Shown here piece by piece: positions 8,739 through 39,077 of a DNA stretch of 64,000 nucleotides (within the stretch, counting starts at the first letter, position 1; every line of letters begins with the position of its first letter). The stretch covers positions 1 through 64,000 of the forward strand of contig JBKAGE010000049.1 of the NCBI GenBank assembly GCA_046290225.1, written 5' to 3'. Under the pieces are notes generated by a model. It did no database searches, was not told the DNA's origin, and saw only the letters and a list, made by a program, of their open reading frames with translations. Both the position numbers and the translations under genes were made by a program. Origin of the DNA: Bradymonadia bacterium (lineage in GTDB: Bacteria; Myxococcota_A; Bradymonadia; UBA7976; UBA1532).

Positions 8739-8828
8739 GCGCCTCTGGCCATCCACTGTGACCACAATGCCCCACCTCTGCTGACCCCACCACGCATCAA
8801 ATCCCCTCTGCGCCAACGACTCACAGTG

Positions 8829-8844
8829 TGGCACATTAAGTGCT
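8829..8844 (+). promoter_or_regulatory. Putative sigma54 promoter for the surface-protein operon
   Basis: TGGCACATTAAGTGCT with exact GG-N10-GC spacing in an AT-rich patch ~70 nt upstream of the start at 8914. Confidence 0.5.
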
Positions 8845-8913
8845 TTAAATACTTCGACCTGCTCAAGGTGATGGATGGACCCCCTGGCGCCGCACGGCGC
8901 GAGAGGTTGTGTG

Positions 8914-11900
8914 ATGATGAGATGGCTCTCTTTTCTCGTGTTGCTCGCTGCCCTGACGGGGTGTGACGACGGTGGTGGTGTGTCCACGCCGGACTGGGCA
9001 CCGTTCCCAGCGGACGTCAGCGGCCCTGATGCCCTGGTCACTGATGGCACCCTCCCTGAAGATCCAGACGCCGAGGCCGCTACAGACGGCGCGGTGATGC
9101 CCGATGGGGGTGATCTCGACATGGAGGCGCCTGCCGACGGCGATGTTTCTGACGCAGAGATCCCCGATGCAGAGATCGCAGACGCCGAGGTGCCGGATGC
9201 TGATCCCAATGCACCGTTGCTCGCAGTCACCGAGCCTCAGGCAGGGGCCTTCATCGCCACTGCAGAGTTCACCGTGAGCGGCACCGCCCGCGCAGCCATG
9301 GCGGGCGACGCAGTCACGGTGACCCTCGACGGGGTCCAGCTGCCTGTGAACGATGACGCCTTCGAAGCGGTCATCGAGCGCCCCGACGGGCCGCACGTGC
9401 TGGCCTTCGTCGCCGAGGCCAACGGCTTCGAGACCCGCGTCGACGTGCCCATCACCGTCGACACCCGAGCACCGCGGGTGGTCATCACCGACCCACAAGC
9501 GGGGGCACGCCTGATCCGCGACGTCATCGACCTCACCGGCACCGTCGACGAAGACGGCGTGCGGGTGCAGGTGGGCGACATTGTTGCTGACGTGGGACCC
9601 GAGGGCTTCGTCGCCCGAGGGGTACAGCTCGCCGAGGGGGCCAACGAGATCGTCGTCGTGGCGACGGATCAGGCGGGCAACCAGGGCACCGCGAGCGTGC
9701 AGGTCGACGTCGACATCACCCCACCATCGATTCAAATCGACACACCCGAAGACGGCACCCTGCTCCAAAGAGAGGCAATCGACGTCTCAGGTCGGGTCAA
9801 CGGCGAGGATGTGGTGCAGGTCGAGGTGGACGGCGCCGCCGTGGAGGTGGCCGCAGATGGCACCTTCACCCGTGAGCTGATCCCCCTCGAAGAGGGCCGG
9901 AACATCATCAGCGCCGCAGCCACCGACGGTCACGGCAACGTCGCCGTAGCCCAGATCGCCGTCATCCGGGACACCTCGCCGGCGACGATCCGCATCGAGA
10001 CCCCGAAAGACGGCGACGTGCTCACCTCGACCCAGGTCGACGTGGCCGGTGTCTGCAACGACCTGATCACTGGGGTCACGGTGAACGAAGACGACCTGCG
10101 GGTGTGGGTAAACGGGGTCGAGGCCCAGGTGCTCAACCGCACCTTCGTGCTGCCCGACCTGCTTCTGCAGCGCGGGCCCAACGTCATCACCGTCGAGGCC
10201 GAGGATCGCACGGGGAACCGCTCGAGCCAGAGCATCCGCGTCCGGGTGGACGATCAAGCGGGCCAGCGCATCGTGAGCTTGTCGGGGAACGGCCAGCGCG
10301 TGCGGGTGGGCGACGAGACGGAGCGTCCCCTTGTGGTGTCACTGCTCGACGCCAACGGCAACCCCGTGGCCAACGCCCCGGTGAGCTTCGCCGTGAGCCG
10401 CGGTGAGGGCGCCGTGGTGGCCTTCCCCGAGCGGGGCCGCGAGGTGCAGGTGCGCACCGACGACAACGGCCTTGCCTCGGTGACCTTCGCCCCGGGCCGC
10501 CGCGCAGGGGCCGGCAGCCACCGCGTCACCGCCACGGCGCCGGGGTATGTGGGCAAGGTCGAGTTCTGCACCAGCGTCATCGCCCACACCGCTCACCGCA
10601 TCTCCATGGTGAAGGGCGACGCGCAAGAGGGCGCCACCCGCGCGGCGCTGCCTGATCCCTTCGTGGCCCTGGTGGTGGATCAGTGGGGCAACCCGGTCTC
10701 CGGCGTAGAGGTCACCTTCGAGGTGATGCAGGGCGACGGTCAGATCGTCGACAGCCCCCGCCGCGTGGTCACCACGGACGCCGACGGCTTGGCCATGGCC
10801 ACCCTCACCCTCGGCGGCGCCGGGTTGCACACCGTGAACGCCCGCTTCGAAGGCCTAGAGGGCGATCCTGCAACCTTCCAAGCGACGGCTCTGGTGCCCG
10901 GACCCCGGGACACCACCCGCCTTGTGGGCCAGGTGCTCGACAATGAAGAGCAGCCTCTGCCCAACGCCACCGCCTGGGTGCGCCTGCCCGACGGGCCCAT
11001 CATCAGCAGCTTCGCCGACGAGGCGGGGCGCTTCTTGCTCGAGGGCGTGCCCGTGGGCCCGGTTCACCTCGTGGTGGACGGCAGCACCACCCGCCGCGAG
11101 GGCTCGTGGCCCAGCATCCAGTACGATCTGACCACAGTGGCCGGGGTGGACAACACGGTGGGTCGGCCCATCTTCTTGCCCCGGAACGATCTCGGCAGCG
11201 CCCGGATCGTGGGCGGCGACGCCGACACCACCCTCACCATCGACGGCGTGCCCGGGGCGGAGATGACTGTCTTCGCCAACAGCGTCACCTGCCCCGACGG
11301 CGGCAACACCTGCCAACTGATGTGGTCTCAGGTCCGCGGTGAGCGCGTGCCCGATCCGCCGCCTCTGGGCTCGAACTTCTCCCTGGTCTGGACGGTGCAG
11401 CCCCCGAACGTGCGCTTCGATCCGCCCGCTCGGGTGTGCATCCCCAACGAGGGCTGGCCCGTGGGTCAGCAGCTCGAGATCTTCTCCTTCGATCACGATC
11501 TCGCCGACTGGGTGGGCCTGGGCACCGCCACGGTGACCGCCGACGGCACCAAGGCCTGCACCGACGAAGGCTTCGGCCTGCGCAAGTCGGGCTGGGGCGG
11601 TGCGCCGCCGCCGCCGCCGCCGCCGAGCTGCGTGGGCAGCTGTGACGACGGCAACCCCTGCACCAGCGACAGCTGCCAGGACGGCAACTGCGTACACGAT
11701 CCCATCGACGGCGGCAGCTGCGACGACGGCTCGGGCTGCAGCAGCCGCGAGTGCCAGATGGGCAACTGCGTCACCCTTGAGCAGCAAGAAGACGGCACGG
11801 AGTGTGACGACAACAGCATGTGCACCGAGGGTGACACGTGTCAGGGCGGCGACTGCGTCGGCGAGGAGATCGAGTGCGGCGACGAGAACGACTGCACCGA

Positions 11901-12993
11901 AGACACCTGTGATCCGGCGGCGGGCTGCCGCAACGAGCCCCGGGTGGGCGCCGAGTGCGACGATGGCGATCTCTGCACCGAGAACGATCAGTGCAACGCC
12001 GAGGCGGCCTGTGAAGGCACCACCAAGGAGTGTGAGCAGGACGAGAACGAGTGCGACGAGCACGTCTGTGACGAGAACACTGGCGAGTGCACCCCGGAGC
12101 CTCGAAACGAGGGGGAGCGCTGCGGCGACGAGGCGGACGAGGATCAGTGCGGGGTCTACGAGTGTCAGCCCGACGGCACCTGCGCTCCGCCCCCCGGCGA
12201 GCCCTCGACGAACGGTCAAGAGTGTGACGACGAGGACATCTGCACCGAGAACGACATGTGCCAGGACGGCGAGTGCAAGGGCGAAGACGTGGAGAGCCGC
12301 GACTGGCTCGACCGCAACCGCCTGGGCTTCGAGCTGAAGGTGCCCAGCAACGTCGTCGCCCGCTGCAACAGCTTCATCAACCGGATCCCCGGCCTCGGGG
12401 GCGTGAAGTTCAAAGAGGCGACGGTGGATGGCCGCGCCCGGGTGAAGGACTGCTGCGACCCGGATCGAGGCATCGTCGATTTGGGCCGCAAAGAGCTCAG
12501 CGCCCGGTTCACTCTGCGCATGAAGACCGGCGACATCCCCATCGGCCCGTGGTTCATCAGCATCGACGGCATGTTCGACTTCGGCATCGCCCGAGGGGGC
12601 ATCTTCGGCGACGTGGGCCCATTCTGGGACGGCGAGTTCACCATCCTGGGAGAGCTGGGCCGCCGCATCTCGGAGTGCGAGGGCGACAACTGCTTCTTCG
12701 GATCCGGCGGCGGCCGCGCCCGCCTGGGCATCAAGCTGGTGCTCGAAGCATTCGCGTGCATCGGCACCCCGCTCTTCGGAGACTTCTGCAGAGGACTCAC
12801 CTTCGCCCCGGCCATCATCCGCGTCGAAGCCGGGGCCCGCATCACCTACAACAAATCATCGTGTGACTCCGGCATAGGTTTCTGCGGCTATCTGGGCCGC
12901 GTCATCTTCCAGTTCGAGCTGTCGCTCAGCTCGCCGGGCAGCAACAAAATCCTGTTCCAGAGACAGGTCTACGACGGCTTTGGGAACTGTTGA
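8914..12993 (+). CDS. Gene A: large lipoprotein with Ig-like stalk, carboxypeptidase-regulatory-like domain, trunk domain, poly-Pro hinge, Cys-rich repeats and a distinct C-terminal domain
   Basis: MMRWLSFLVLLAALTG-C lipobox; DAExP linker; four Ig-like repeats (e.g. EGANEIVVVATDQAGN); two Big_1-like repeats (D..GNPV....V.F.V..G.G); FSFDHDL...KSGWGGAPPPPPPP; CDDGNPCT-type repeats. Confidence 0.88.
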   Translation: MMRWLSFLVLLAALTGCDDGGGVSTPDWAPFPADVSGPDALVTDGTLPEDPDAEAATDGAVMPDGGDLDMEAPADGDVSDAEIPDAEIADAEVPDADPNAPLLAVTEPQAGAFIATAEFTVSGTARAAMAGDAVTVTLDGVQLPVNDDAFEAVIERPDGPHVLAFVAEANGFETRVDVPITVDTRAPRVVITDPQAGARLIRDVIDLTGTVDEDGVRVQVGDIVADVGPEGFVARGVQLAEGANEIVVVATDQAGNQGTASVQVDVDITPPSIQIDTPEDGTLLQREAIDVSGRVNGEDVVQVEVDGAAVEVAADGTFTRELIPLEEGRNIISAAATDGHGNVAVAQIAVIRDTSPATIRIETPKDGDVLTSTQVDVAGVCNDLITGVTVNEDDLRVWVNGVEAQVLNRTFVLPDLLLQRGPNVITVEAEDRTGNRSSQSIRVRVDDQAGQRIVSLSGNGQRVRVGDETERPLVVSLLDANGNPVANAPVSFAVSRGEGAVVAFPERGREVQVRTDDNGLASVTFAPGRRAGAGSHRVTATAPGYVGKVEFCTSVIAHTAHRISMVKGDAQEGATRAALPDPFVALVVDQWGNPVSGVEVTFEVMQGDGQIVDSPRRVVTTDADGLAMATLTLGGAGLHTVNARFEGLEGDPATFQATALVPGPRDTTRLVGQVLDNEEQPLPNATAWVRLPDGPIISSFADEAGRFLLEGVPVGPVHLVVDGSTTRREGSWPSIQYDLTTVAGVDNTVGRPIFLPRNDLGSARIVGGDADTTLTIDGVPGAEMTVFANSVTCPDGGNTCQLMWSQVRGERVPDPPPLGSNFSLVWTVQPPNVRFDPPARVCIPNEGWPVGQQLEIFSFDHDLADWVGLGTATVTADGTKACTDEGFGLRKSGWGGAPPPPPPPSCVGSCDDGNPCTSDSCQDGNCVHDPIDGGSCDDGSGCSSRECQMGNCVTLEQQEDGTECDDNSMCTEGDTCQGGDCVGEEIECGDENDCTEDTCDPAAGCRNEPRVGAECDDGDLCTENDQCNAEAACEGTTKECEQDENECDEHVCDENTGECTPEPRNEGERCGDEADEDQCGVYECQPDGTCAPPPGEPSTNGQECDDEDICTENDMCQDGECKGEDVESRDWLDRNRLGFELKVPSNVVARCNSFINRIPGLGGVKFKEATVDGRARVKDCCDPDRGIVDLGRKELSARFTLRMKTGDIPIGPWFISIDGMFDFGIARGGIFGDVGPFWDGEFTILGELGRRISECEGDNCFFGSGGGRARLGIKLVLEAFACIGTPLFGDFCRGLTFAPAIIRVEAGARITYNKSSCDSGIGFCGYLGRVIFQFELSLSSPGSNKILFQRQVYDGFGNC
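11605..11625 (+). repeat. (CCG)7 pure trinucleotide run encoding PPPPPPP
   Basis: Read directly; sits at the trunk/Cys-rich junction of gene A. Confidence 0.95.
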
Positions 12994-12994
12994 C

Positions 12995-14128
12995 ATGTCG
13001 ATCAAGCAACTCGCACTCTGCACCGCCCTGGCGGCGGCCTTCGCCGGCACCGCCTCGAGCACCGCCTCTGCCGAGCCCCGGAGCTACCCGCTGCCCTACA
13101 CCGTACGGGCCGTGAGCAATGCCCCCATGGCGAGCGGCTTCTATCTGCGCATGGACGCGCAGCAGATGTCCGTGCCCCTGAGCGACTTCGTCAGTCAGTC
13201 GGGCAAGCTCGACGCCGACGCGGCCATGAGCAACCTCTTCAAGGGCTTCGTCGATCGCGACGCCGTGGCCGTGGGCCGCTGGCTCGACCGCCGGCAAATG
13301 ACCGGCACCGCCGCAGACGCGGTGAACACCTACCGAGAGGCCTTCAACAACTTCGAAGGTGTGCGCATCGAGCGCCGCGTCGCCGTGGGCGATCACGTGC
13401 TCTTTGTCTGGTCGGTGGACAAAAAGAACGCCGAAGGCAAGGGCCGCCGCTGGCTGCGTGCCTTCGCCGTGAGCCAAGTGGGCGGCCGCTGGAAGGGGGA
13501 GCTGGTCACCTCGAACCGGGCCCTCGATCTCATGATCCTCGACGCCCTGAGCGCAGAGCGCATGTTCCCCGAGCGCTTCGCGAGCCAGCAGGCCCCGCAA
13601 GGCAGCCACAGCCTGTCGATCGCCACGGGGGTGGCCCTGGAGTTCACCGGAGTGAGCTTGAGCTACGACGCCACGGTGGAGTCGCCGCCCTCGGATGATC
13701 CGCGCCTGCAGATGTTCAGCACCCTCGCCGGGGCGCTGCGCGACGGCGACATGCCCGGTTTCGCCCAATACCACGACACCGAGAGCATGAAGCGCCTCGA
13801 GCACCGCATCCAAAACGCCACGGAGCACATGCGGGGCTGGATGCAGTTCAACGGCCAGGGCCGCCACGTCCTGGGCCTCGCCGGTGGCGCACCGGACGGC
13901 CCAGGTGAGCTGTCGGTGATCTTCTACGCCGAGGGGCCCCAGGGCCCCGACGCGGAGCGCCTCGTGCGCTGGAGCTGGTTTCGCCGGTTCCCCCGAGCGG
14001 GCTGGCGACCGGTGAACTTCATGTACTTCGACACCCTCGACGAGTTGCTCGACAAGGCGGCCTTCCCCAAGACGGCCCCGGCCTTCTCCACCGCATTCCG
14101 AGGGGCTTCCCGGGGGGTGACTCGATGA
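12995..14128 (+). CDS. Gene B: secreted hypothetical protein
   Basis: ATG 1 nt after the gene A stop; Sec signal MSIKQLALCTALAAAFAGTASSTASA; stop overlaps the gene C start (ATGA); high-GC3 codon usage. Confidence 0.85.
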   Translation: MSIKQLALCTALAAAFAGTASSTASAEPRSYPLPYTVRAVSNAPMASGFYLRMDAQQMSVPLSDFVSQSGKLDADAAMSNLFKGFVDRDAVAVGRWLDRRQMTGTAADAVNTYREAFNNFEGVRIERRVAVGDHVLFVWSVDKKNAEGKGRRWLRAFAVSQVGGRWKGELVTSNRALDLMILDALSAERMFPERFASQQAPQGSHSLSIATGVALEFTGVSLSYDATVESPPSDDPRLQMFSTLAGALRDGDMPGFAQYHDTESMKRLEHRIQNATEHMRGWMQFNGQGRHVLGLAGGAPDGPGELSVIFYAEGPQGPDAERLVRWSWFRRFPRAGWRPVNFMYFDTLDELLDKAAFPKTAPAFSTAFRGASRGVTR

Positions 14129-17100
14129 GACGACTGAAGCTCACGGGGGCTTTGGCCCTGGCCAGCACCATGCTGATGTGCGCCTTCGCCGCGGCGCAGC
14201 CCAACGTGGTGCCCCCTGATCCGCCACAGAACTACCCGCTCGACGAGCGGTGCACGGTGAACATCCTCAACCGCACGGCGCCGGTGAACGCCCACGGCGG
14301 CTTCGTGCTGCCCAACGTGCCCGTGGATCGCGGCCTCTACCGGGCACGGGTCATCTGCGAGCGGAACGGCGTGCTCCTGCGCGGGCAGTCCGATCTGCTC
14401 ACCCTCGAGCCCAACGCCGAGACCAAGGTCGGCTTGGTGGACTTCACCCGGCAGATCCCGGTGCCTCAAGCGCTCTACCTCCACACAGCCGACGGCCGCG
14501 ACACCCTCACCGAGGTGGGGGAGACGGTGGATCTCGTGCTGCTGGGTCGAGTAGCCCCTGGCGGCGTGCTTGAAGGTCAGGTCGACGCCGGTGGCCTCGT
14601 GCCCCTCGATGGCGCCATCAACGGTACGATCTACATCTCGAGCAACCCCGAAGTGGCCACGGTGGACGACACCGGCCTGGTGACTGCCGTGAGCCGAGGC
14701 CGCGTGAACATGATCGCGGTGAACGAAGGCCGCGTAGTGGCGGTGGAGATCGAGGTCGACATCCCCGACGACCGTGATCTCGACGGGCTGCCCGACGCTT
14801 TTGAAATCAGAAATGGCCTCAACCCGGATGATCCCGCCGACGCAGCCCTCGATCTCGACGGTGATGGTCTGAGCAACCTCGACGAGTTCCTCGCGGGCTC
14901 GAGCATCAACACCGCAGACACCGACGGCGACGGCCTGCTCGATGGCGCCGAGGCGGCTCTGGGCACCTCCCCCGTACGGGCCGACACGGACGACGACGGC
15001 CTGCTTGATGGCGACGAGCAAGCCCGCGGCACCAACGCGACGGTGGCCGACACCGATGGTGACGGCATCGCCGACGGCGCCGAGGTGGACGCGGGCCTCG
15101 ATCCCACGGTGGCCGACGAGACCACCACGGTGACAGGCCAGGTCCTCAGCCCCGATGGCGCCGCCGTAGAGGGCGCGGTGGTCATCGTGGCCCGGACCTA
15201 TGTGACCAACACCGACGCCGACGGCACCTTCAGCATCGACTTCGTGCCCACGAACCGGCGCCTCAAGGCTCAGGTGCGCTACATCGAAGACGGCGAGGCC
15301 TTCGACGGCACCGCCTCTGCAGCGAACCCGACCCCCTTCGGGGTCACCGACTTCGGCACCATCAACCTGCGCCCCGTGCTCAACGCCGTGGGCGGGCAGG
15401 TGCTCAGCCCCCGGGGTGAGCCCGTCGTGGGGGCCCACGTCAGGGTCACCGTCGACGGCGAGACCCGCACCGGGCACACCGATCGCGGCGGCCTCTATCT
15501 GATCCGTCAGGTCCAGGAAGGCGAGGTCACAGTCGTGGCCACGGATCCCGACACGGGTCTGCGGGGCTTCGCCGAAGGCACCCTCGCCGCGGACGAGGCC
15601 CTCACCGTAGATGTGCAGCTCTCCGCTTCGGGCACCTTCGAAGGCCAGGTCTACGCCCAGGACGGCCAGCCTGTAGGCGAGGGCATCTCGGTGATTTTGC
15701 GCGGCCCCATCGGCGCCGAGACCACCACCGATGCCCTGGGTCGCTACCGCTTCGATTTCGTGCCCCTCGGGCGATACAGCCTCGAGGCTTTCGATGACGC
15801 CGGAGCCCGTGGCCGCACCACCGCAGCGATCAGCAACACCAACCAGATCATCGACGCGCCCATCAGCTTCCTCGGCGCTGGGCAGATCGTCGGCCGGGTG
15901 GAGTCCGGCGCGGGCGCCCCGGCGCCAGGCGTGCAGCTGGTCGTGGTCGCTCAGGGGGCCTTCGAAGCCACCCTCGAGGGCGTCTCCGACGCAGAAGGTC
16001 GGTTCCAGTTCGACGGGCTCCCCGTGGGCCCTGTGGAGATCTCCGCCATCGATCCCGACTCCGGCCTCGCCGGCGTCGTGGCCACCACCCTCGACTTCAA
16101 CGGCGACACCGCCGAGGTGGTGATCACCCTGAGGGCGGCGGGCAGCCTCGTGGGCACGCTCTACACCGCCCCCATCGGCGGCGCCCGTCAGCCCGCCCCC
16201 GGAGGCTCGATCACGCTGCAGCCCTCCGGGCGCACCGCTGCCACCGACGCCACAGGGCGCTTCCGCTTCGACGGGGTGCCCCTCGGGGCCTACACGCTCG
16301 TGGGGGCCCTCGGCGCTGATCGCGGCCACGGCGTGGCCAACGTCGACCTGCCCGACGGTGAGAGCGAGACCGAAGTACAGCTGCTCGGCCTCGGCGAGGT
16401 GCAGATCCGCGTGCTCGACGGGGGCGGTGCGCCGGTGCAAGGCGCCCACCTGACCCTCAACTCGGCGGTGCCCTTCGAAGGGGCCGCATTCGATCAGATC
16501 CTCAACGGATTCACCGACGCCGACGGCGTCGACACGCTCCCCGGCGTACTCGCTGGGCCCTTCACCGTGCAGGCCGTCGACGCCCTCAACGGCCTCACAG
16601 GTCAGGTGAACTCCAGCGTGCTCCCTGGTGAGCAGGTGGCCCTCACCGTGCGCCTTGAAGGCGCCGGCGCCATCGTGGGCCAGACCCTCGCCCCCGACGG
16701 CGCCACCCCAGTGCCCAACCTCACCGTGACGGTGCTCTCTGCCGATCGCCGCAGCGAGCGCACGGTGACCAGCGATGCCACTGGTCGATTCCGGTTCGAC
16801 CTGCTGCCTGTTTCTGGCTCGCCCTATGTGCTGCAGGCCTTCGACAACTTCGGCGCCCTGCGGAGCGAAGCTGGTGATCTTCAGCTCGCCGGCCACGGTG
16901 ATGAGATCACCCAGGATCTGGTGCTCGGCGGCACCGGCTCGATCTACGGGCTGGTCTTCCAGCCCGACGAGACCCCCGCAGCGGGGGTGCGCGTCACCGT
17001 GGAGAGCGATCAGCTCGGCAGCCCGCTGCGCTATGCCACCACGGACGCCGCTGGGGCCTACCGCGTCGACGGGGTGCCTGAGGGGGCCTTCGTCGTCACG

Positions 17101-20100
17101 GCGAGCAACCTCGCCGCCCGCCGGGCCGCCACGGCCTCGGGCAGCATCGACGAAGACGCCGCCGAGGTGGAGATCGATCTCACCCTCGAAGAGGACATCA
17201 TCCCACCGCCTCCGGGGGACAACCCGGTCATGGCCCGCCTGGAAGACGCCAGCCGCTACCCCTGGACCATCCGCCAGGACGGCAGCAGCGAAGACGGCCT
17301 GAACCGCGTGTTCCTGGGCAATGGTGCCGAGCGCCGTGGCGCCCTGGAGCTGGCGGTGCGCATCGCCGGTGGAGTGCAGTTCCTGCCCTTCACCGCCCGG
17401 GGCGGCCGCTTCGAGCTCGACGGTCGTCAGGTGGTGCTTCCTGGCACCGCCCTGGGCGATCTGCAGGTGAGCCGGAAGCTCTATGTGCCCGTGGACGGCT
17501 ACTTCGTCCGAGCCCTGGAGCAGTTCGAAAACACCGGCGACGAGGCCATCTCCGTCGATGTGCGGCTGCAGAGCCACTACGACTTTGTGAACCGGGTCCG
17601 AGATGGCTTCACCTTCCAGGAAACCGCCCGGGTGGTCCGGGACGACAACGGCGACGTGACCTACACCGCCGCGGATCGCTGGGTGGCCCTCGACGACGAG
17701 CTCGACATCGATCCGTTCCTCGTCTTCAACCTGCCGTCGGTGGCCCACGTGCTCCATGGCGGCGCAGCGGAGAACAGCGTCCTCCCCGCTGAGGGCAGCC
17801 ACACCATCTTCGAAGACGGCTCGAGCACCCTCGAGACCCAGTGGCTCCGCATCGACGTGCCCGCAGGCGCCACGGTCTCCCTCGTGCACTTCGCCGCTCA
17901 GCGCGCCAGCCACGATGGCGCTCAGGCTGCGGCGAGCCGTCTGGCGCAGCTGCCCCCGGAGGCCCTCGCCGGCCTCACCGAAGAAGAGCGCGGTCAAATC
18001 GTCAACTTCGATCTCGGCGCCCCTGTAGATCTCGAGCCGCTCCCCGCCATCGACGGCGTCATTGAAGGGCACGCCCTCGAAGGCGACGGCGCCCCGGCCC
18101 CCGGAGGCGGGATCAACTTCAAGAGCGCTCACCCGATCTTCGACCGCACGTGGCGGGTCATCAGCGCTCTGGGCAGCAGCGACGAGCCCGCGGCCTTCAC
18201 CTTCGTGGGAGAAGCCGGCCGCGGCGGTCGGCCAGTGCCTGTGGCCGACTTCGAACTCTGGGGCGAGCACCCCCAGTCGAGGCTGGAGTCCCCTCGCATT
18301 CGGGCCAGCTTCCCCGAAGAGTCTTCCACCGCCTCCGCCGACGTGATCTTCGAAGGCACGGGCCGCCTCACCGGTGAAGTCCGCCGCGCCGGCGGTGACG
18401 TCGCCAGCGTCGGGCAAGTGGAGATCAGCGGCGACGCCATCGAGCGCCCGCTCCGGACCGCCATCGCCATCGACGGCCGCTACAGTCTCGGCGGCCTGCC
18501 CCCGGGCAACTACGGGCTCCTCGCTGAGGTCCCGATCCCAGGCGGCACCCCGGTGAGCGGCAGCGGCGAGGGCCGGGTCTTCATCGAGCAGGCCACCACG
18601 GTGAACATCACCCTGGTGCCCACCGGGGGGATCACGGGCTTTGTGCTCGACGGGGGCGGCAACCCCGCCATCGACGTGCAGCTTCGCCTGCGCGGCCCCG
18701 ACAACTTCCGACGCGATGGGGCCTCCGACACTGGCGGGCGCTACGCCTTCCTCGACCTGCCCGTGGGCGACTACACGATCGAGGCCTTCGAGCCCCGGAC
18801 CGGGGTGGCGTCGACGGTGGAGATCAACATCGACGAAGGTGGCGCCATCGAGCGCAACATCGATCTCGTGGCCATCGGCCGCGTACACCTTACTGCCGTC
18901 TACCCCGACGGGCGCCGGGCCATCGAGGCGCCGATCCAGATTCAGCGGGCCCTGCTCGGGCCCTTCTTCCGCAGCGCGGGCGCGACCAACGGCCAGGGTG
19001 AGCTCACCCTCGAGGGGATCCCCCTCGGCGGGTTCCAGATCCGCGCCCTGCACCCCGGTGGCGGCAACCTCGCCGGTCTGGTGGAAGGTGCCATCGAGGC
19101 CCATGATCAGAGCCTCGACCTCACAGTGGAGATCCCTGAAGATCTGCCCCCTGAGGTGGCCCTCCTGGCACCTCAGTCCGGGGCCTTCCTCGAAGGCACC
19201 CAGCTGGGGCTGCGGGCCGAGGCCTCAGACGATCTTCGGGTGGTTCGGGTGGAGTTCCTGGTGAACGGCCTGCCCGTGGCCACCGACTCCGCGGCGCCCT
19301 ACACCCAGACCTGGGTGCTGCCTCAGGGCGCCCCGGGTGATCTCACCCTCGTCGCTCGAGCGGTGGACTCCGGTGGCAACCAGACCGACTCCGAGCCGGT
19401 CATCCTCACCCGCGTCGATGACGACACCCCGCCGGTGGTGGCCATCGCGGCGCCCTTCGAAGGCGCCGAGCTCACCGTGGGCGCGCCCTTCACGTTCACC
19501 GCCACCGCCACCGACGACGTCGCCGTTGAGGTTGTGCGGTTCTACGTGGGCGATGTCGAAGTCGGCACCGATGACACCCTGCCCTACCGCGTGCAGGCGG
19601 TGATCCCCCCGAACACGGTGCCGGGGCCGCAGGACCTGCGCGTCGTCGCCGAAGATCGAGCCGGCCTCACCACCGAAGCCACTGTGGGTGTGGTGATCCG
19701 CGCCGACGAGCCACCGGTCATCGAGCTGGTCGCCGGACCAGAGCCCAACGGCACCGTCGTCGAGGGCACCCCAGTCACCTTGGAGGTCGACGCCACCGAC
19801 GACGTCGGTGTGGTGGTGGACGTGCTCTTCGATGGCGAGGTGGTGGCCACCCGCAGTCAGGCCCCCTTCCGCTTCACGCCCCCGGCGCCGGCCACGGCCG
19901 ATGGCGCACCCCGAGCCCTCGAGATCACGCTGCGGGCCACCGACACCGCGGCGCAGACCGCAGAGCTCGTGATCCCCGTGCAGGTCACCGTCGACCAGCC
20001 GCCTCAGGTGGTGATCACGGCCCCTGCAGCGGAGGCCGAGTTCGTCGAGGGCACCACGATCACCGTCACCGCCGACGCCGAGGATGATCTCGCCGTAGCA

Positions 20101-23100
20101 GAGGTGATCTTCGACTTCGGCAACGGGCTGCAAATCACCGACGACACCCCGCCCTACACCGCCACGGCCCCCATGGAGTCTGGCGATGCCGGGCCCACGC
20201 CCATCATCGTCACCGCTGTGGACAGCTTCGGTCAGCGCACCGACGAGACCCTCACGGTGATTCGGCTCGATGACGAGACGCCCCCCACAGGGGCCATCGT
20301 GAGCCCGGCGGACGGCGCCAGCCTCGCCCTCGGGGCCACGGACGTGATCTTCGTCTTCGGCAAGAACAACCGCGGCGACGTGCTCACAGAGGTGGATCTC
20401 GACGACGACGGCAACAACGACTCGCTCCTGCAGATGCAGGTCATCGCCGCCCGGGCCATGATCAGCGCCCTCGATCTCACGAGCACGCAGGTGGCTCTGG
20501 CCACCTACGACGTGAACGCCCGGGTCGATCAGAGCTTCAGCCAGGGCCGGGACACTCTGGACACTGCCCTGGCCCTCATCCCCGAGGGCCAGATCAGGTT
20601 CGGCGCGATCCCCGAGCGGGGCATCAACGCCGCGGTGGCCCACGCCATCGGTGTCGAAGGCAACCGCACGGCGGCCCCGGTGATCTACCTCTTCGCCGCC
20701 GACGACGATGACTTCGACATCGACACCAGCGCCGCCGAAGAGGCCGGGGTGATCGTGCACACGGTGCTCACGGGCGACGCCATCGAACGCGGTGAGCTGC
20801 GAGAGGCCGCCGAAGACACCGGTGGGCGCTTCAACCGTCTGAACTCACCTGAAGACGTCGACGCCCTCGTGGACAGCGTGCTGGTGAGCGCCGACGCGCT
20901 GCGGGCCACCATCGAAGCCGACGACGACGTCGCCGTGCGCCGCGTGACGCTCCGAGCCACCAGCGCCGACGGCGCCGTGCAAGAGACCGGTCGAGCCTTC
21001 GAGGCGCCTTATGAGTTTGCTCTGGGCTTGCCCCCGCTTCCTGGGGCCACCGAGATCACTCTCCGTGGAGAGATCGCCGACTACAGCGACACCCCCGCCT
21101 TCACAGATCCGGTGACGGTGACGGTGCTGCCGGACAACGCCGCCCCCATCCTCCTCGCCGCGGTGCCCGCCAAGGGTGTACCCGGCGACGAGATCACGCT
21201 CCAAGGCCGCTTCTTCTCCGCGACGCCCGCAGACAACACGGTGCGCTTCGGCGACGTCGCGGCCGAGGTGCTCAGCGCCAGCAAGATCGCCCTCGTGGTC
21301 CGCGTGCCCGAAGGGGCGCAGACCGGGGGCATCACCGTGGAGGCCGACGGCGAGATCTCCGGGCCCCTGCGCTTCGGTCTCGATGTCGACGCGGACGGCG
21401 CGGACGACGAGGAAGAGGCAGCCCTGGGTACCGATCCGAACAACCCCGACACCGACAGTGACGGCCTGCTCGACGGCGACGAGGTGCCCAACGGCGCTGA
21501 TCCCCTCGACGCTGACACGGATGATGACGGCATGTCCGATGGCTTCGAGGTGCAGTACGACCTGAACGTCACCGAGGCCGGTGACGAGATCATCGACCAC
21601 GATCGGGACAACCTCACCTCGCTCGAAGAGTTCAACCTGGGCACGAACCCCCGCGATCCGGACACCGACGACGACCTGCTCGACGACGGCGAAGAGGTAC
21701 AGGCGGGATCGGACCCCCTCGACGAGGACTCCGATGACGGAGGCACCCTCGATGGCTTCGAGGTCCTCGAAGACGGCACGAACCCCCTCGACGGCGCCGA
21801 CGATGTGCCTCGAGTCGACCTGCCCTATAGCCTGAACGACGGGAACAACTACCTCTGGGACGTGCAGGGCACCGGGGCGATCCGCAACGGCACCAGCGAC
21901 GCCTACGACTTCGGCCTGAACCTCGAGATCAACGGCGCCCGGTTCCCCACTTTCCAGGTGGCCATCGTGGAAGATGATCGCGAGCTCTCCATGGGCCCCT
22001 GGGCCATCTCCGGCCTGGTGGTCCGCCGCAAGATTTTCGTGCCCGAGGGCGAGGCCTTCGCCCGGTTCCTCGAGGTGGTGGAAAACCCCGGCGACGAGCC
22101 CGTGAGCGCCACCCTCGAGGTGAACACCAACCTGGGCTCCGACGGCAACACCGTGCTCGTGGCCACGAGCTCGGGTGACGCCACGTTCGATCTCACCGAC
22201 GGCTGGCTCACCACCGACGATGCCTCGAACGGCGGCGGTGATCCATCGATGGCCCACGTCTTCGCCGGCACCAACGGGCGCCTGGAGCCGAGCGCGCTGA
22301 GCCTTGACCGCGACAACATCAACTACACGTTCCCGCTGGAGCTGGCCCCTGGCGAGCGCGTCATCGTGATGCACTTCGCCGCCCAGAACCTGAACCGCGA
22401 GACGGCCCTCACCTCGGCGCAGACCCTTCAGGCGCTTCAAGGCAGCACGCTCGCCGGACTCACCGCCGACGAGCAGGACGAGATCGCCAACTTCTTCGCC
22501 TTCGCGGACGCGGATGGTGACGGTCTCTCCGACGCCCGGGAGCTGGAGCTGGGCACAGGCGTGAACACCCCCGACACCGACGGCGACGGCCTGCTTGACG
22601 GCTTCGAGTTCCGTTATGGCCTTGACCCGCTGGTGCCCCAGGCTGCCGACACCGACACGGATGGCGACGGTCTGCCCGATCTCGGGGAGCAAGCGCGCAA
22701 CGCAGATCCCACCGATCGCGACTCTGACGACGACACGCTGGAGGATGGCTTCGAGGTGGACACCTCGGGCACCGAGCCCGCGCTCTTCGACACGGACGGC
22801 GACGGCATTGATGACGGCACCGAGTGGGCCGGCCCCACGGATCCCACTGTGGCCGACACCGACGGCGACGGCCTGCTCGATGGCGAAGAGGTCAACCGGT
22901 ACCGCACGGATCCGAACGACCCCGACACTGATGGTGACGGCATGCCTGATGGCTTCGAGATCGAATACGACTTCGAGCCCACAGAGCACGAGGACGGCGC
23001 CGAAGATGCGGATCGAGACGGCCTGACCAACGCTCAGGAAGCACAGGCCGGGGCCAACCCCTACAACGCCGACACCGACTTCGACGATCTCACCGACGCT

Positions 23101-24819
23101 GAAGAGGTGCTGGTGCACAACACCAACCCCGCTGAGAGCGACACCGACGGTGGTGGCCGCCGCGACGCCGCGGAGATCTACCTCGACGGCACCGACCCGC
23201 TGGCCGCTGGCGACGACCAGGAGGTCTTCGACGATCGGCACTTCCTCAACGACGGCGAAGGCTTCTACTGGGATCTTCGGGGCGACGGCCGGGTGAACAA
23301 TGGCACCGCCAACGCCTTCGACGGCGGCTTCGACATCCGGTTCAACGACGGGTTCTTCTTCGAGAGCGAGTCGGGTCGCCGCCTCAACAACCGCGAGCAC
23401 TTGTTGGGCCCGTGGCGCCATCGGGACCTGCTCCTGAGCCGAGCCATCTTCGTGCCTGAGAACGACGGCTTCGCCCGCTACCGCGAGATCATCATCAACC
23501 CCACCAATCAGCCTCAAACAGCCACTCTGGTCTTCAACACTGATCTGGGGAGCGACGGGCAGACGGAGATCGTCGCCACCTCGAGCGGCGACCAGACCTT
23601 CACCATCGAAGATGACTGGATCATCACCGACGACGGCGACGACGAAGGCAGCCCCGCAGTGGTGCACGTGTTCTCCGACGCCGTGGGCACCGCCCAACCC
23701 GTGGACGTGAGCGCCAGCATCGGGGTGGACGACGTCACCGTGACCTTCGAGGTGGTGGTGCCGCCGAACAACTCCGTGGTGCTCATGCACTTCGCGGCGC
23801 AGCAGACCACCCGGGCCGAGGCCCTGGCCAAGGTGGATCACCTCACGGGTTTGCTCGGCGCCACCCTCGATGGCCTGACCCCTGCGGATCAGCGCGCCGT
23901 GGCGAACATCGTCACCTTCGAAGACGCCGACGACGACGGCCTGAGCAACGAAGAAGAGCTGCAGATTGGCACCTCGCCTCAGAACCCCGACACCGACGCC
24001 GACGGCCTGCTCGACGGCTTCGAGGTCACCTACGGCTTCGACCCGCTCACCGGCGGTGATGGGCCGAATGATCCTGATGGTGATGGCCTGGCCAACACAG
24101 ACGAGCAGAACATCGGCAGCTCCCCGCTCCTCGCCGACACCGACGGCGACGGCCTCGACGATCCCGACGAGGTCCTCGCCACCAGCGATCCCAACCTCCC
24201 CGACACCGACGGCGATGGCTTGCTCGACGGTGACGAGGTGAACGTGCACGGCACCAGCCCCATCCTCGCCGACACCGACAATGGTGGGCTGAACGATCTC
24301 GAGGAGATCACCCGGGGCAAGGATCCCCTCGATCCCGCCGATGATCTGCTCTCTGGCTTGTCGTGTGAGTTCGCGGAGCCCACCGAGGTGGATCCGTTCA
24401 CCTTCGGCTTCGAGGCGTCCACGGACATCGAAGCCCCGAGCAATTACGTGGGCTCTTGCGGCGGTGATGGCCCCGAGGTGGTCTTCGGCCTCTCCGTGGG
24501 CGAGCCGTCGTTCATCTTCGCCGCGGTGACGTGGGCGGAGTTCGATACGGTGATGTACGTCCGGTCGAGCGACTGCGACAACAACCTGCGCGAGGTGGCC
24601 TGCAACGACGACAGCGACTTTGGTGACATCGTGGGCCCCGGCCCTGGGTTTGGTGGTGAAGGTGAAGGCGGCGAGGGCGCTGATCCGAGCGTCTACTCCG
24701 CCATCGCCACGCCAGTGGGCCCCGGTGAGATCTACATCTTCCTCGACGGCTTCGACGAGTTCGAAGCGGGCGCAGCCACGATCGACATCTCCGTGGAAGA
24801 AGGCGGCCTCGAGGAGTGA
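14125..24819 (+). CDS. Gene C: 3564-aa giant secreted multidomain protein (Ig-like, carboxypeptidase-regulatory-like repeats, DTDGDG Ca-binding repeats, VWA-like, IPT/TIG, three copies of a ~230-aa domain)
   Basis: Signal peptide; Big_2-like SSNPEVATVDDTGLVTAV; many TD..GRFRF..LP.G.Y repeats; Big_7-like ASDDLRVVRVEFLVNG repeats; VWA-like region ~20340-20880; IPT ~21140-21375; four blocks of DTDGDGLxDGxE...GTxP; strongly acidic. Confidence 0.92.
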   Translation: MRRLKLTGALALASTMLMCAFAAAQPNVVPPDPPQNYPLDERCTVNILNRTAPVNAHGGFVLPNVPVDRGLYRARVICERNGVLLRGQSDLLTLEPNAETKVGLVDFTRQIPVPQALYLHTADGRDTLTEVGETVDLVLLGRVAPGGVLEGQVDAGGLVPLDGAINGTIYISSNPEVATVDDTGLVTAVSRGRVNMIAVNEGRVVAVEIEVDIPDDRDLDGLPDAFEIRNGLNPDDPADAALDLDGDGLSNLDEFLAGSSINTADTDGDGLLDGAEAALGTSPVRADTDDDGLLDGDEQARGTNATVADTDGDGIADGAEVDAGLDPTVADETTTVTGQVLSPDGAAVEGAVVIVARTYVTNTDADGTFSIDFVPTNRRLKAQVRYIEDGEAFDGTASAANPTPFGVTDFGTINLRPVLNAVGGQVLSPRGEPVVGAHVRVTVDGETRTGHTDRGGLYLIRQVQEGEVTVVATDPDTGLRGFAEGTLAADEALTVDVQLSASGTFEGQVYAQDGQPVGEGISVILRGPIGAETTTDALGRYRFDFVPLGRYSLEAFDDAGARGRTTAAISNTNQIIDAPISFLGAGQIVGRVESGAGAPAPGVQLVVVAQGAFEATLEGVSDAEGRFQFDGLPVGPVEISAIDPDSGLAGVVATTLDFNGDTAEVVITLRAAGSLVGTLYTAPIGGARQPAPGGSITLQPSGRTAATDATGRFRFDGVPLGAYTLVGALGADRGHGVANVDLPDGESETEVQLLGLGEVQIRVLDGGGAPVQGAHLTLNSAVPFEGAAFDQILNGFTDADGVDTLPGVLAGPFTVQAVDALNGLTGQVNSSVLPGEQVALTVRLEGAGAIVGQTLAPDGATPVPNLTVTVLSADRRSERTVTSDATGRFRFDLLPVSGSPYVLQAFDNFGALRSEAGDLQLAGHGDEITQDLVLGGTGSIYGLVFQPDETPAAGVRVTVESDQLGSPLRYATTDAAGAYRVDGVPEGAFVVTASNLAARRAATASGSIDEDAAEVEIDLTLEEDIIPPPPGDNPVMARLEDASRYPWTIRQDGSSEDGLNRVFLGNGAERRGALELAVRIAGGVQFLPFTARGGRFELDGRQVVLPGTALGDLQVSRKLYVPVDGYFVRALEQFENTGDEAISVDVRLQSHYDFVNRVRDGFTFQETARVVRDDNGDVTYTAADRWVALDDELDIDPFLVFNLPSVAHVLHGGAAENSVLPAEGSHTIFEDGSSTLETQWLRIDVPAGATVSLVHFAAQRASHDGAQAAASRLAQLPPEALAGLTEEERGQIVNFDLGAPVDLEPLPAIDGVIEGHALEGDGAPAPGGGINFKSAHPIFDRTWRVISALGSSDEPAAFTFVGEAGRGGRPVPVADFELWGEHPQSRLESPRIRASFPEESSTASADVIFEGTGRLTGEVRRAGGDVASVGQVEISGDAIERPLRTAIAIDGRYSLGGLPPGNYGLLAEVPIPGGTPVSGSGEGRVFIEQATTVNITLVPTGGITGFVLDGGGNPAIDVQLRLRGPDNFRRDGASDTGGRYAFLDLPVGDYTIEAFEPRTGVASTVEINIDEGGAIERNIDLVAIGRVHLTAVYPDGRRAIEAPIQIQRALLGPFFRSAGATNGQGELTLEGIPLGGFQIRALHPGGGNLAGLVEGAIEAHDQSLDLTVEIPEDLPPEVALLAPQSGAFLEGTQLGLRAEASDDLRVVRVEFLVNGLPVATDSAAPYTQTWVLPQGAPGDLTLVARAVDSGGNQTDSEPVILTRVDDDTPPVVAIAAPFEGAELTVGAPFTFTATATDDVAVEVVRFYVGDVEVGTDDTLPYRVQAVIPPNTVPGPQDLRVVAEDRAGLTTEATVGVVIRADEPPVIELVAGPEPNGTVVEGTPVTLEVDATDDVGVVVDVLFDGEVVATRSQAPFRFTPPAPATADGAPRALEITLRATDTAAQTAELVIPVQVTVDQPPQVVITAPAAEAEFVEGTTITVTADAEDDLAVAEVIFDFGNGLQITDDTPPYTATAPMESGDAGPTPIIVTAVDSFGQRTDETLTVIRLDDETPPTGAIVSPADGASLALGATDVIFVFGKNNRGDVLTEVDLDDDGNNDSLLQMQVIAARAMISALDLTSTQVALATYDVNARVDQSFSQGRDTLDTALALIPEGQIRFGAIPERGINAAVAHAIGVEGNRTAAPVIYLFAADDDDFDIDTSAAEEAGVIVHTVLTGDAIERGELREAAEDTGGRFNRLNSPEDVDALVDSVLVSADALRATIEADDDVAVRRVTLRATSADGAVQETGRAFEAPYEFALGLPPLPGATEITLRGEIADYSDTPAFTDPVTVTVLPDNAAPILLAAVPAKGVPGDEITLQGRFFSATPADNTVRFGDVAAEVLSASKIALVVRVPEGAQTGGITVEADGEISGPLRFGLDVDADGADDEEEAALGTDPNNPDTDSDGLLDGDEVPNGADPLDADTDDDGMSDGFEVQYDLNVTEAGDEIIDHDRDNLTSLEEFNLGTNPRDPDTDDDLLDDGEEVQAGSDPLDEDSDDGGTLDGFEVLEDGTNPLDGADDVPRVDLPYSLNDGNNYLWDVQGTGAIRNGTSDAYDFGLNLEINGARFPTFQVAIVEDDRELSMGPWAISGLVVRRKIFVPEGEAFARFLEVVENPGDEPVSATLEVNTNLGSDGNTVLVATSSGDATFDLTDGWLTTDDASNGGGDPSMAHVFAGTNGRLEPSALSLDRDNINYTFPLELAPGERVIVMHFAAQNLNRETALTSAQTLQALQGSTLAGLTADEQDEIANFFAFADADGDGLSDARELELGTGVNTPDTDGDGLLDGFEFRYGLDPLVPQAADTDTDGDGLPDLGEQARNADPTDRDSDDDTLEDGFEVDTSGTEPALFDTDGDGIDDGTEWAGPTDPTVADTDGDGLLDGEEVNRYRTDPNDPDTDGDGMPDGFEIEYDFEPTEHEDGAEDADRDGLTNAQEAQAGANPYNADTDFDDLTDAEEVLVHNTNPAESDTDGGGRRDAAEIYLDGTDPLAAGDDQEVFDDRHFLNDGEGFYWDLRGDGRVNNGTANAFDGGFDIRFNDGFFFESESGRRLNNREHLLGPWRHRDLLLSRAIFVPENDGFARYREIIINPTNQPQTATLVFNTDLGSDGQTEIVATSSGDQTFTIEDDWIITDDGDDEGSPAVVHVFSDAVGTAQPVDVSASIGVDDVTVTFEVVVPPNNSVVLMHFAAQQTTRAEALAKVDHLTGLLGATLDGLTPADQRAVANIVTFEDADDDGLSNEEELQIGTSPQNPDTDADGLLDGFEVTYGFDPLTGGDGPNDPDGDGLANTDEQNIGSSPLLADTDGDGLDDPDEVLATSDPNLPDTDGDGLLDGDEVNVHGTSPILADTDNGGLNDLEEITRGKDPLDPADDLLSGLSCEFAEPTEVDPFTFGFEASTDIEAPSNYVGSCGGDGPEVVFGLSVGEPSFIFAAVTWAEFDTVMYVRSSDCDNNLREVACNDDSDFGDIVGPGPGFGGEGEGGEGADPSVYSAIATPVGPGEIYIFLDGFDEFEAGAATIDISVEEGGLEE

Positions 24820-26711
24820 TCAACCGCCCCCTCCTTTGCATGCTGGCCCTGCTCTGGGGCTGCACCGATCCCCACTCGGCCCCCACACCTGATGCAGGCT
24901 TCGACGCCGCTCTCGACCTCGACGGAGGGCTCGACGCCGGCCGGTCATCACTTCAGGTGGTGCCCATGGCCGACGGGCCCTTACTCCTCGGGGTATGGCA
25001 CGACGGGGCCTCGATCTGGCTCGCGGGCGGCCGCTCCGGTGACACCGGTGGCGTACTGCTCACCGGCGGCGACACACTGACGCAGGCCCCCATCCCGCCA
25101 GGGCCGCCGCTCTGGTGGGTCTGGGGCACCGGCGAGCAACGCTTTGCCTCTGGAGAAGGCGGCCGCATCGTGCGCTTCGACGGCGCACGTTGGCTGGCCG
25201 AGCCCACAGGGTTGCCAGACATGGCGGTGCTCTGGGGCATCTGGGGTTCTGGGCCTGAAGATCTCTGGGCAGTGGGTGGCTCCCCACGCCCTGATGGGCC
25301 CAAGGGGGTGATCCTGCGGTCCACCGGAGACGGCCAGTGGGAACGGGTGGATCACCCTGCCCTGCCCACGACCAGCAACCTTTACAAAGTCTGGGGCACA
25401 GGGCCCAACGACGTGCACATCGTGGGCGAAGCCGGCGTGGCCCTGCACTGGGACGGCGCCGACTACCGCCGTATCGACACGGGCACTGACGCGATCTTGT
25501 TCACGGTGCATGGTCAGCCTGAAGGACCGATCTTCGCCGTGGGCGGCACCGCCTCGGGGGTGGCGCTGCAATGGAGTGGTGATCGCTGGATCGACGCGGG
25601 GCTCCCAGAGGGTCTGCCCCCGCTCAACGGGGTCTTCGTCGCTGAAGACGGCGTGGTGTACGTCACGGGCCAGCGGAATCGCATCGCCCGACGCGATCTC
25701 GAGGGTGAGTGGTCCACGGTCATGTTCGACGGCCGCCGAGAGAGCGCCGACACACTGCACGCGGTCTGGGGGCGCGCCCCTGGTGAGATCTGGGTGGTGG
25801 GCGGCGACTTCTTCGGTGGCAATGGCGGGGTGTTGATCACGGATCGTGCACCTCGGCCCACACTCGACTTCACCCCACCTCCACAGCCTGATGCTGGCCT
25901 GCCCGACATGGATCTCCCCGACGTCGAGCCCCCAGATTCAGAGCCGCTGGACTTCGCGCTGCCCGATGTGGAGATCCCCGATATGGGCCTGCCTGATCTC
26001 GATCTCCCCGACGCAGATGGGCCGCCGATCTGCGGGGATGAACGGGTGCAGGGAGACGAGACTTGCGATGACGGCAACCGCCAAATCGGAGATGGCTGCG
26101 ACGCGGACTGCCAGCTCGAGTGCGGCAATGGACGCCTCGACCCCGGCGAGGCCTGTGAGGATGGCAATCGAGATCCTGGTGATGGTTGCGACGCTGAGTG
26201 CCGTCGAGAGTGCGGGAACGGCCGCATCGACGGAGACGAAGCCTGCGATGACGGCAACCGAGAGCCCAATGACGGCTGTGATCGCTTCTGCCGGCTGGAG
26301 TGTGGCAACGCACAGCTCGACGGCGACGAGACCTGCGATGACGGCAACACTGAGCCCGATGATGGCTGTGACGAGGCATGCCGCCTCGAATGTGGGAACG
26401 GCCAGCTCGACGGCGACGAGGCCTGCGATGACGGCAACACCGAGCCTGGCGACGGCTGTGATGCTCAGTGTGAGGTAGAGCGCCTCCCAGGTCCGGGAGA
26501 GATCTGCCCTGATCTGGTGTGTGCCGAGCCCTTCGAATGCTGGGGGGTGGCCGATTTGAACTTCACGAATTACTGCCTCAAGCCTTGTGAAGTGGTGACG
26601 GACTGTATCGATGACTTTGGTCCGGAAGTCTGCTGTCAGCCTCCGGGGCCCCAGCTGCTCGATACATTCTGTGTGCCCCAAGCGTTATTGCAGGATCCTT
26701 GTGGGGAATAA
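24816..26711 (+). CDS. Gene D: lipoprotein with WGxxxxDxWAVG beta-propeller-like repeats and five myxobacterial Cys-rich repeats
   Basis: LLWG-C lipobox; GTG start overlaps the gene C stop (GTGA); GIWGSGPEDLWAVG, KVWGTGPNDVHIVG and AVWGRAPGEIWVVG repeats; DxxLP linker. Confidence 0.88.
   Translation: MINRPLLCMLALLWGCTDPHSAPTPDAGFDAALDLDGGLDAGRSSLQVVPMADGPLLLGVWHDGASIWLAGGRSGDTGGVLLTGGDTLTQAPIPPGPPLWWVWGTGEQRFASGEGGRIVRFDGARWLAEPTGLPDMAVLWGIWGSGPEDLWAVGGSPRPDGPKGVILRSTGDGQWERVDHPALPTTSNLYKVWGTGPNDVHIVGEAGVALHWDGADYRRIDTGTDAILFTVHGQPEGPIFAVGGTASGVALQWSGDRWIDAGLPEGLPPLNGVFVAEDGVVYVTGQRNRIARRDLEGEWSTVMFDGRRESADTLHAVWGRAPGEIWVVGGDFFGGNGGVLITDRAPRPTLDFTPPPQPDAGLPDMDLPDVEPPDSEPLDFALPDVEIPDMGLPDLDLPDADGPPICGDERVQGDETCDDGNRQIGDGCDADCQLECGNGRLDPGEACEDGNRDPGDGCDAECRRECGNGRIDGDEACDDGNREPNDGCDRFCRLECGNAQLDGDETCDDGNTEPDDGCDEACRLECGNGQLDGDEACDDGNTEPGDGCDAQCEVERLPGPGEICPDLVCAEPFECWGVADLNFTNYCLKPCEVVTDCIDDFGPEVCCQPPGPQLLDTFCVPQALLQDPCGE
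26031..26480 (+). repeat. Five tandem 90-bp / 30-aa Cys-rich repeats (CGNG.LD..E.CDDGN....DGC...C..E), DUF4215/myxococcal type
   Basis: Five units counted in the translation with an exact 30-aa period. Confidence 0.9.
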
Positions 26712-38603: not shown

Positions 38604-39017
38604 GTATCTCGTCTCCCGTGATGGGTGCGTCACTGCCCAGATGGCTCCATCGGATGTGACACAGAGAAGGACTATAGGAGAACGATGGTGGCCGAATCTC
38701 TGTAAACACCTTGAAAACCAAATGAAAACCCGCAGAAAACGCATTTTCAATGGCGTTTACAACCCAGATGGGACGCTTTCGAAGAGATCTTGCCCTCGCC
38801 GGCGGGTCGCCATCACAGCGTTCTGCATGTGTGCACGCCCTTCCTCATCACGCTCTACCCGCTCACCCATGCTTTCTATTCGAAAGTCAAAATGACTTCG
38901 AAGTCTCACCGGCCAGCGTACCTTCCACCTGTACGACATGCCCTGAGCACATCGTAATCATTCAATACGGAGGTGATGGCGAGGCGTGCCGTGGAGATCC
39001 CCCGCCTCCGGCATATC

Positions 39018-39033
39018 AGGCATACAATTTGCG
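39018..39033 (+). promoter_or_regulatory. Possible sigma54 promoter for the M4 peptidase
   Basis: AGGCATACAATTTGCG with GG-N10-GC spacing and TTGC, ~45 nt before ATG 39078. Confidence 0.4.
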
Positions 39034-39077
39034 CTGTGCATCAGCAAACAGCCGCTCTCGCCTCTGGAGGCTACTTG

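Follow-up and report, generated by a model that had tools for sequence, protein, structure and literature searches.

CdiBA combines a large surface protein with a variable toxic tip, an immunity gene and extra tandem cassettes, and the myxobacterial SitA, grouped here with TraAB outer-membrane exchange, is a lipoprotein toxin with a polymorphic C-terminus and a cognate immunity protein. For polymorphic toxins of the Sec/type II route the available part of PMC3482391 describes a signal peptide, a constant N-terminal part, a variable C-terminal domain (CTD) and an immunity gene next to it. The same part of this source lists NTF2, LRR and HEAT folds among immunity proteins and places ZU5 domains, whose cleavage motif is given as CxH, at the N-terminus of RHS proteins linked to SpvB/TcdB-TcaC export. 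In the umbrella toxins of Streptomyces (UmbA/B/C), as far as the accessible portion of PMC11062931 goes, a protein with a polymorphic tip is accompanied by a separate partner with diversified binding modules, signal peptides are present and the immunity gene directly follows the toxin. Bacterial teneurin-like proteins, finally, appear in the available part of PMC13018210 as surface proteins of rare and patchy occurrence, with N-termini of Ig type, a TTR/CRL-like domain, a downstream immunity gene and a polymorphic C-terminus, some of these CTDs resembling outer-membrane proteins.

How does the locus analysed here compare with these systems? It lies in a stretch of 64,000 nucleotides from a Bradymonadia bacterium (the window) and consists of four genes, A to D (Table 1), the first three of which, judged from their homologues, form with a probability of roughly 0.7 a polymorphic toxin-immunity system that would use Sec export and surface display to attack envelopes, with protection in the periplasm. 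With CdiBA the A-B-C loci share the large surface protein, the variable tip, the downstream partner and the tandem cassettes, whereas the CdiB/Omp85 transporter, the TPS domain and haemagglutinin repeats are absent. SitA and the window's A are both lipoproteins, but most A homologues are not, occur also outside the myxobacteria and have exported partners. A-B cassettes share the layout of the Sec/type II toxins, including ZU5 and the NTF2, LRR and HEAT immunity folds; in contrast to what the available part of PMC3482391 describes, the ZU5-like domain of A is found directly before the tip, usually without RHS, and lacks the conserved cleavage serine, the giant C is always at the locus, the tips are nearly all of envelope type and the partners are exported. 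The SpvB/integrin propeller and the RHS/YD shell of TcdB/TcaC or RHS toxins are absent from the products of A-D in the window, and RHS occurs only in the relatives L027 and L162; more distant ZU5-like matches in the phylum are RHS proteins. Umbrella toxins resemble A/C and A-B-C in the features named above, but Pfam and NCBIfam find no ALF repeats, coiled-coil stalk, trypsin-like domain or UmbB match in A-D, the hosts are diderm, the architecture is of Ig/TSP3 type and an A-C complex is a prediction here. The teneurin-like proteins resemble A in domain types and A-B in gene order; however, the window's A has no FN-plug, NHL or YD shell, the end of its trunk matches ankyrin ZU5 in the PDB, and teneurin-like matches of the profile of C's N-terminal domain (Cn) are confined to Big_2.

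No description of the A-B-C architecture was found in the open-access literature, although supplements, for example of PMC3482391, could list members, and the A-C platform domains are missing from the trafficking and repeat domains given in the available part of 10.1101/2021.10.19.465003. The platform is likely undescribed, polymorphic-toxin-like yet outside the RHS/TcdB-TcaC, teneurin-like, umbrella and CDI definitions. If the proposed reading is true, it would add to the polymorphic toxin catalogue a delivery platform that standard anchor lists have missed.

Table 1. Coordinates of the genes, domains and promoter-like site of the locus within the window.
Feature	Position	Strand	Description
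sigma54-like -24/-12 site	8829-8843	+	~70 nt before gene A, one mismatch
Gene A	8914-12993	+	1359 aa, lipobox-like N-terminus; predicted tip-bearing polymorphic toxin
A stalk (limits approximate)	9217-11151	+	Glucodextran_B Ig repeats, two Big_1, one carboxypeptidase-regulatory-like domain
A ZU5-like domain	11152-11601	+	ends in conserved GW motif; family marker
A linker	11602-12294	+	polyproline run and cysteine-rich (Dicty_CTDC-like)
A exchangeable tip	12295-12990	+	modelled as cysteine-stapled amphipathic long beta-sheet and one helix; predicted envelope-acting effector
Gene B	12995-14128	+	377 aa, Sec-type N-terminus; predicted cognate immunity/chaperone for beta tip
Gene C	14125-24819	+	3564 aa, acidic, Sec-type; predicted adhesion/targeting partner
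C N-terminal signature domain (Cn)	14230-14445	+	no Pfam/PDB match
Gene D	24816-26711	+	631 aa, lipobox-like N-terminus

The locus and its conserved unit

The four reading frames described in the sequence-only reading are present with their tight junctions (a 1-nt gap for A/B, ATGA for B/C and GTGA for C/D) and, as far as can be read from the sequence, their export signals, lipobox-like in A and D and of Sec type in B and C; the start of A was set at 8914 in place of 8875 as given by the ORF finder. In line with that reading, which saw none of these features, the RHS, RTX, autotransporter and MYXO-CTERM families of Pfam and NCBIfam have no match in A-D. Pfam recognises Glucodextran_B, Big_1, CarboxypepD_reg and Dicty_CTDC in A, nothing in B, CarboxypepD_reg, TSP3_bac, Big_7, Big_2 and TIG in C, and DUF4215 and a weak propeller in D. 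Modules thought to be shared between A and C are indeed so in having the Pfam label CarboxypepD_reg in common, but sequence likeness is absent (120-aa windows of A against C gave no match at E<1e-4) and the Ig families differ. The sigma54-like site has the right spacing, but it carries a mismatch, and 102 such sites and 22 perfect ones occur genome-wide; with a loose pattern, sites near the A starts of relatives were found in 11 of 62 cases, about chance level, and its action as a promoter is plausible, not established. Directly 5' of this site lies a gene for a GH113-family glycoside hydrolase (7617-8738).

Genes A, B and the Cn part of C are present in one copy each in the own genome. In C, Cn is followed by Big_2, TSP3 repeats, carboxypeptidase-regulatory-like (CRL) repeats and three domains of about 250 aa without a family, and further modules are four Big_7, a vWA-like and a TIG domain and a cysteine-containing C-terminal domain; 17 motifs are of DxDxDG type. 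Homologues of C vary beyond Cn, Big_2 and TSP3 and contain CRL repeats, LVIVD propellers, Big_5, FG-GAP or PA14. The domain of about 250 aa has no sequence match in the PDB; in genome G000 ten ORFs contain it (five on contig C62, the others on C47, C56, C2, C37 and C82), many of them also with TSP3 repeats. At L040 and L044 C is in several pieces. A word-index search with the N-terminus of C returned mainly Big_2 look-alikes, and relatives of Cn were obtained via the loci.

Are A and C also neighbours elsewhere? The comparison covers 39 genome and 38 metagenome loci with 81 cassettes including that of the window, of which five run off the contig end and 11 were dropped (seven duplicates or near duplicates, four broken or cut), leaving 65. 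Cn lies downstream of A in 38 of the 39 genome loci, the remaining one stopping at a contig edge, and among cassettes with at least 2.6 kb of downstream sequence, duplicates included, A is followed by Cn in 61 of 62, the exception having an interrupted tip, so that the adjacency of A trunk and Cn is kept across phyla. Moreover, among 401 genomes sampled without bias from the phylum, eight contain close A trunks (E<1e-40; 15 copies) and nine contain Cn (16 copies); all eight A-bearing genomes have equal copy numbers of A and C, and in the ninth Cn genome tip and partner are truncated at the contig end. Seven extra loci from this sample all consist of A, zero to four partner genes and C, and throughout the genomes searched Cn was seen solely beside A cassettes. 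The view of A and C as a coupled, unnamed surface system, for which effector display was one of several guesses, therefore holds across phyla.

Carriers of A-C were found in Acidobacteriota, Myxococcales, Entotheonella, Gammaproteobacteria, Phycisphaerae, Thermodesulfovibrionia and Limisphaerales; A-B-C is a rare unit scattered over many bacterial groups. No transporter or regulator family recurs among the neighbours in the flanks. Since the own genome has GspD above the cut-off and no match to the type VI component VipA, type II secretion serves as the working guess; GspD exceeded the cut-off in two of five carrier genomes tested.

Gene D, with a propeller-like domain and DUF4215/TIGR02232 repeats, behaves differently. 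Its propeller-like domain occurs in 22 of 27 family genomes, with four copies in the own genome, as compared with 2 of 27 for B at strong E, and in genomes G015 and G023 no D follows C. By this sequence comparison D is a passenger, a lipoprotein of a common family appended here, and the conserved unit is A-B-C. Downstream of D on the same strand a further lipoprotein is encoded (27185-29023), with a Gly-rich linker and a propeller-like C-terminus.

The trunk of A and its exchangeable tips

With residues 680-920 of A (ORF-finder numbering) as query 157 trunk homologues were found, one of them (P0044) from the cultured Pelagibaculum spongiae. Among the matches listed, a GW motif and a polyproline run close the trunk; a linker that is either rich in cysteines or of Ig type comes next, and the tails behind it are unrelated. 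Profile searches of the PDB with the last trunk domain had ankyrin ZU5 regions as top four matches (E 0.0013-0.017), and Pfam ZU5 matches 9 of 43 members (best E 0.00092), weak but consistent indications that this domain may be related to ZU5. The autoproteolytic ZU5 domain has a His-x-Ser-type cleavage motif at its C-terminal end. In the domain of A the corresponding position reads K-[A/S]-G-W and the serine is not conserved, so that a cleavage motif is not found and the domain is read as a binding module. A broad trunk alignment as PDB query yielded Ig/CRL matches only, and a lead towards a teneurin FN-plug (Atlas row score 0.80) was dropped, as PDB profile searches gave no support. More distant ZU5-like domains are seen in RHS proteins and in giants of 3000-4900 aa without Cn (L165-L170). 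At L125 an A-like ORF of 2021 aa (8026-14088) combines nine Glucodextran_B repeats with a beta-type tip; ZU5 gives no match in it, and a small barrel-like gene stands in B's place. The sequence-only reading had missed the ZU5-like domain, the variable C-terminal tip and D's position outside the conserved unit, and lipoprotein anchoring, which it took as the rule, does not generalise, a lipobox (own pattern) being present in just 16 of 101 Met-starting A homologues.

The tips fall into 44 clusters among 182 sequences (117 of 120 listed proteins and 65 locus cassettes, two overlapping sets), the largest being the window's beta type with 87. Tips with a family name in Pfam or NCBIfam are Peptidase_M23 (E 1.8e-28), reprolysin, polysaccharide deacetylase and PLA2G12, found in a scan partly on 30 proteins that are cluster representatives, as well as Peptidase_M74/MepA and DUF6973. 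Others presumably belong, from motifs, with lysozyme, 3D-domain, papain, transglutaminase, lipase and HExxH peptidases. Core A genes with DUF6531, RHS and a C-terminal domain are found at L027 and L162, followed by an LRR gene and by a small gene without evident signal, respectively. Eighteen of 27 non-beta tips have no informative Pfam match, and in some only Ig-like families match (FlgD_ig in L025, He_PIG in the second copy of L028). In pairs with 70-94% trunk identity (n=33) the tips are only 18-46% identical in 32, and the median identity is 17% for the beta tip as compared with 47% for the ZU5-like domain. Tips are broken by an apparent insertion element in L066 and L067 and split in L044. 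The clean boundary motif would allow mining of dozens of predicted envelope-acting effector families and their inhibitors from mostly uncultured Acidobacteriota, Myxococcota-like and other lineages.

The gene between A and C

B is modelled with high confidence (pLDDT 92.7) as two NTF2-like domains, both halves matching NTF2-like chains (best Z 8.5); the immunity protein Tai3 (4hz9_B) is found among ties at Z 7.6. Neither Pfam nor NCBIfam has a match, which places B outside any named immunity family by sequence. A gene stands between A and C in 61 of the 65 cassettes, and two of the four without it have beta tips; L159 likewise has no partner gene. How closely does this gene follow the tip? Tip clusters and next-gene clusters agree with an adjusted Rand index (ARI) of 0.52, a value reached in none of 5000 shuffles, which ignore kinship. 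A B-family NTF2-fold gene follows 32 of 38 beta tips, a class from which L062 was taken out by eye and into which L052 was put on a profile match, and 0 of 25 other partnered tips. In detail, the 38 are followed by seven two-domain B homologues, 25 one-domain forms, which align with B in hhalign at 95.9%, four divergent longer proteins and, twice, nothing. Metagenome loci, which had no part in building the tip profile, gave the same picture (12/12 versus 0/11), and L163 has a B-family partner with no beta-tip match. Common partner families are also found behind tips of the PLA2 type (3/3), the L043 type (3/4) and DUF6973 (2/3), and within L025/L078 and L028/L092 (2/2 each).

Moreover, when 57 cassettes are placed on a tree of their trunks, tip and partner are swapped jointly between the well-supported sisters L064/L063 (support 1.00) and L021/L059 (0.99), and the tip-partner pair of L025/L078 returns in distant trunk clades. 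A signal-like N-terminus is seen in 60 of 61 partners and in 24 of 186 control windows by a hydrophobicity heuristic, the single partner without it being the LRR gene behind an RHS tip. Among beta-tip cassettes, divergence of the partner follows that of the trunk (rho 0.73) about as closely as that of the tip (0.67), which leaves coevolution beyond descent unsupported there. Partners are repeated in L045, L054 and L160, genome G301 has four A genes and four single-NTF2 genes, two adjacent and two orphan, and L016 and L017 have tandem A-B-A-B-C arrays. At L016, L017 and L126 tandem arrays in two family relatives were seen with two more large genes upstream, one of them a further giant of C type. 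What the sequence comparison shows is a constant trunk, a variable tip, a tip-matched next gene and a constant C, and the general genomic features of polymorphic toxins are found in it: 1) a stable N-terminal region with a variable CTD; 2) CTDs of toxin type; 3) a co-varying downstream gene.

Alternatively, the stalk could carry digestive or prey-lysing exoenzymes, the partner serving as a chaperone for folding or as an inhibitor during transit and so guarding the producer's own envelope, with no competition among kin. Tips that are mostly hydrolases of envelopes or polymers, exported partners and the LVIVD, FG-GAP and PA14 modules of C homologues, which suit substrate binding, would fit, and the available part of PMC3482391 mentions ZU5 for surface proteins that bear degradative enzymes. 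Yet one-to-one tip-specific, tandem and orphan partners, RHS tips and fast divergence are features of conflict systems, and the tip found most often is no enzyme, which makes this explanation unlikely.

The beta-sheet tip and a possible mode of action

The model of the window's tip (pLDDT 84 from 25 sequences) consists of a single helix and some ten long strands whose faces alternate between hydrophobic and polar, and its cysteines are conserved. Its closest structures are outer-membrane barrels (Z 7-9, rmsd 4-7.5 Å), with CymA (Z 9.0, rmsd 4.8) and NalP (Z 8.7) scoring best, and Foldseek returned nothing at E<=0.001. The model is an open sheet and A-D lack a Pfam autotransporter match; its barrel likeness is a generic resemblance of curved sheets with no confident fold match. 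Pfam and NCBIfam assign no catalytic family to it, and the Atlas yields unnamed clusters only. Strong matches to the beta tip in the 401 genomes (E<2e-8) are all of A type, as are its four matches among the longer proteins in the candidates listed, a weak test, and the beta-rich end of the RHS protein L169 does not align with it (probability 2%).

Could this domain be the outer-membrane anchor or translocator of A, an autotransporter-like part of a barrel, with B as its assembly chaperone? Barrels including autotransporter translocators as best structure matches, the strands with alternating faces and the tip's place as the commonest one would speak for it. Against it, the same trunk carries 40-odd other tips that lack this domain, the tip diverges far more than the ZU5-like domain, it is small (about 230 aa) with conserved cysteines and high rmsd values, the window's A is already anchored as a lipoprotein and in L124 the beta domain lies inside the protein; an anchor is therefore improbable. 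Since the tip fills the position that other cassettes give to hydrolases of wall or lipid, is the fastest to diverge and comes with an exported partner of its own, we infer that it may be a membrane-active effector. It would point to a possible new family of outer-membrane-attacking proteins.

For the probable toxin-immunity system the likely course is the following. A, B and C would cross the inner membrane via Sec, and A and C, their folds held by disulfides and Ca2+, would be carried to the surface by the type II pathway, while B would remain in the periplasm or envelope, keeping the tip harmless during transit of the producer's periplasm and protecting later against siblings. C would dock onto A, with Cn and the ZU5-like region as the probable contact sites, and would grip the target by its variable adhesion modules. 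The tip would then attack the neighbour's envelope from outside, relatives using wall peptidases, phospholipases and proteases, and the window's amphipathic beta-sheet inserting into or disturbing the outer membrane. Tentatively, and at less than even odds, this amounts to a two-component surface weapon of diderms of at least seven phyla, in which a Ca-binding adhesin C on a ZU5-like stalk A presents toxins that act from outside, the commonest warhead being a disulfide-stapled beta-sheet that would pierce or jam the outer membrane of rivals and that the periplasmic NTF2-fold B family would keep inactive.

Tip and partner might instead be a lock-and-key pair for self-recognition or adhesion, in the manner of TraA-like kin recognition. 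Rapid divergence, pairing and the existence of non-enzymatic tips fit this, and C is like the TSP3-rich cohesion proteins MtsD and CglD, though far under the cut-off and by repeat only; as many tips are hydrolases or RHS toxins and the partners have no common anchor or fold, it is very improbable. The four-protein, Ca-stiffened stoichiometric assembly anchored by the lipoproteins A and D that the sequence-only reading had proposed from overlapping junctions, export signals and C's DxDxDG-type motifs is largely refuted and has the slightest chance of all, D being dispensable, B swapped along with A's tip and the lipobox rare.

Elsewhere in the window the GC content is 46% in positions 1-2000 as compared with about 65% in the rest, and an ORF there (140-3199) encodes TSP_3 and many hexapeptide repeats. 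A large thermolysin (M4) protease with a PPC domain is encoded at 38973-42950, and a protein with a weak Omp85 match at 56335-58203, 30 kb off the locus.
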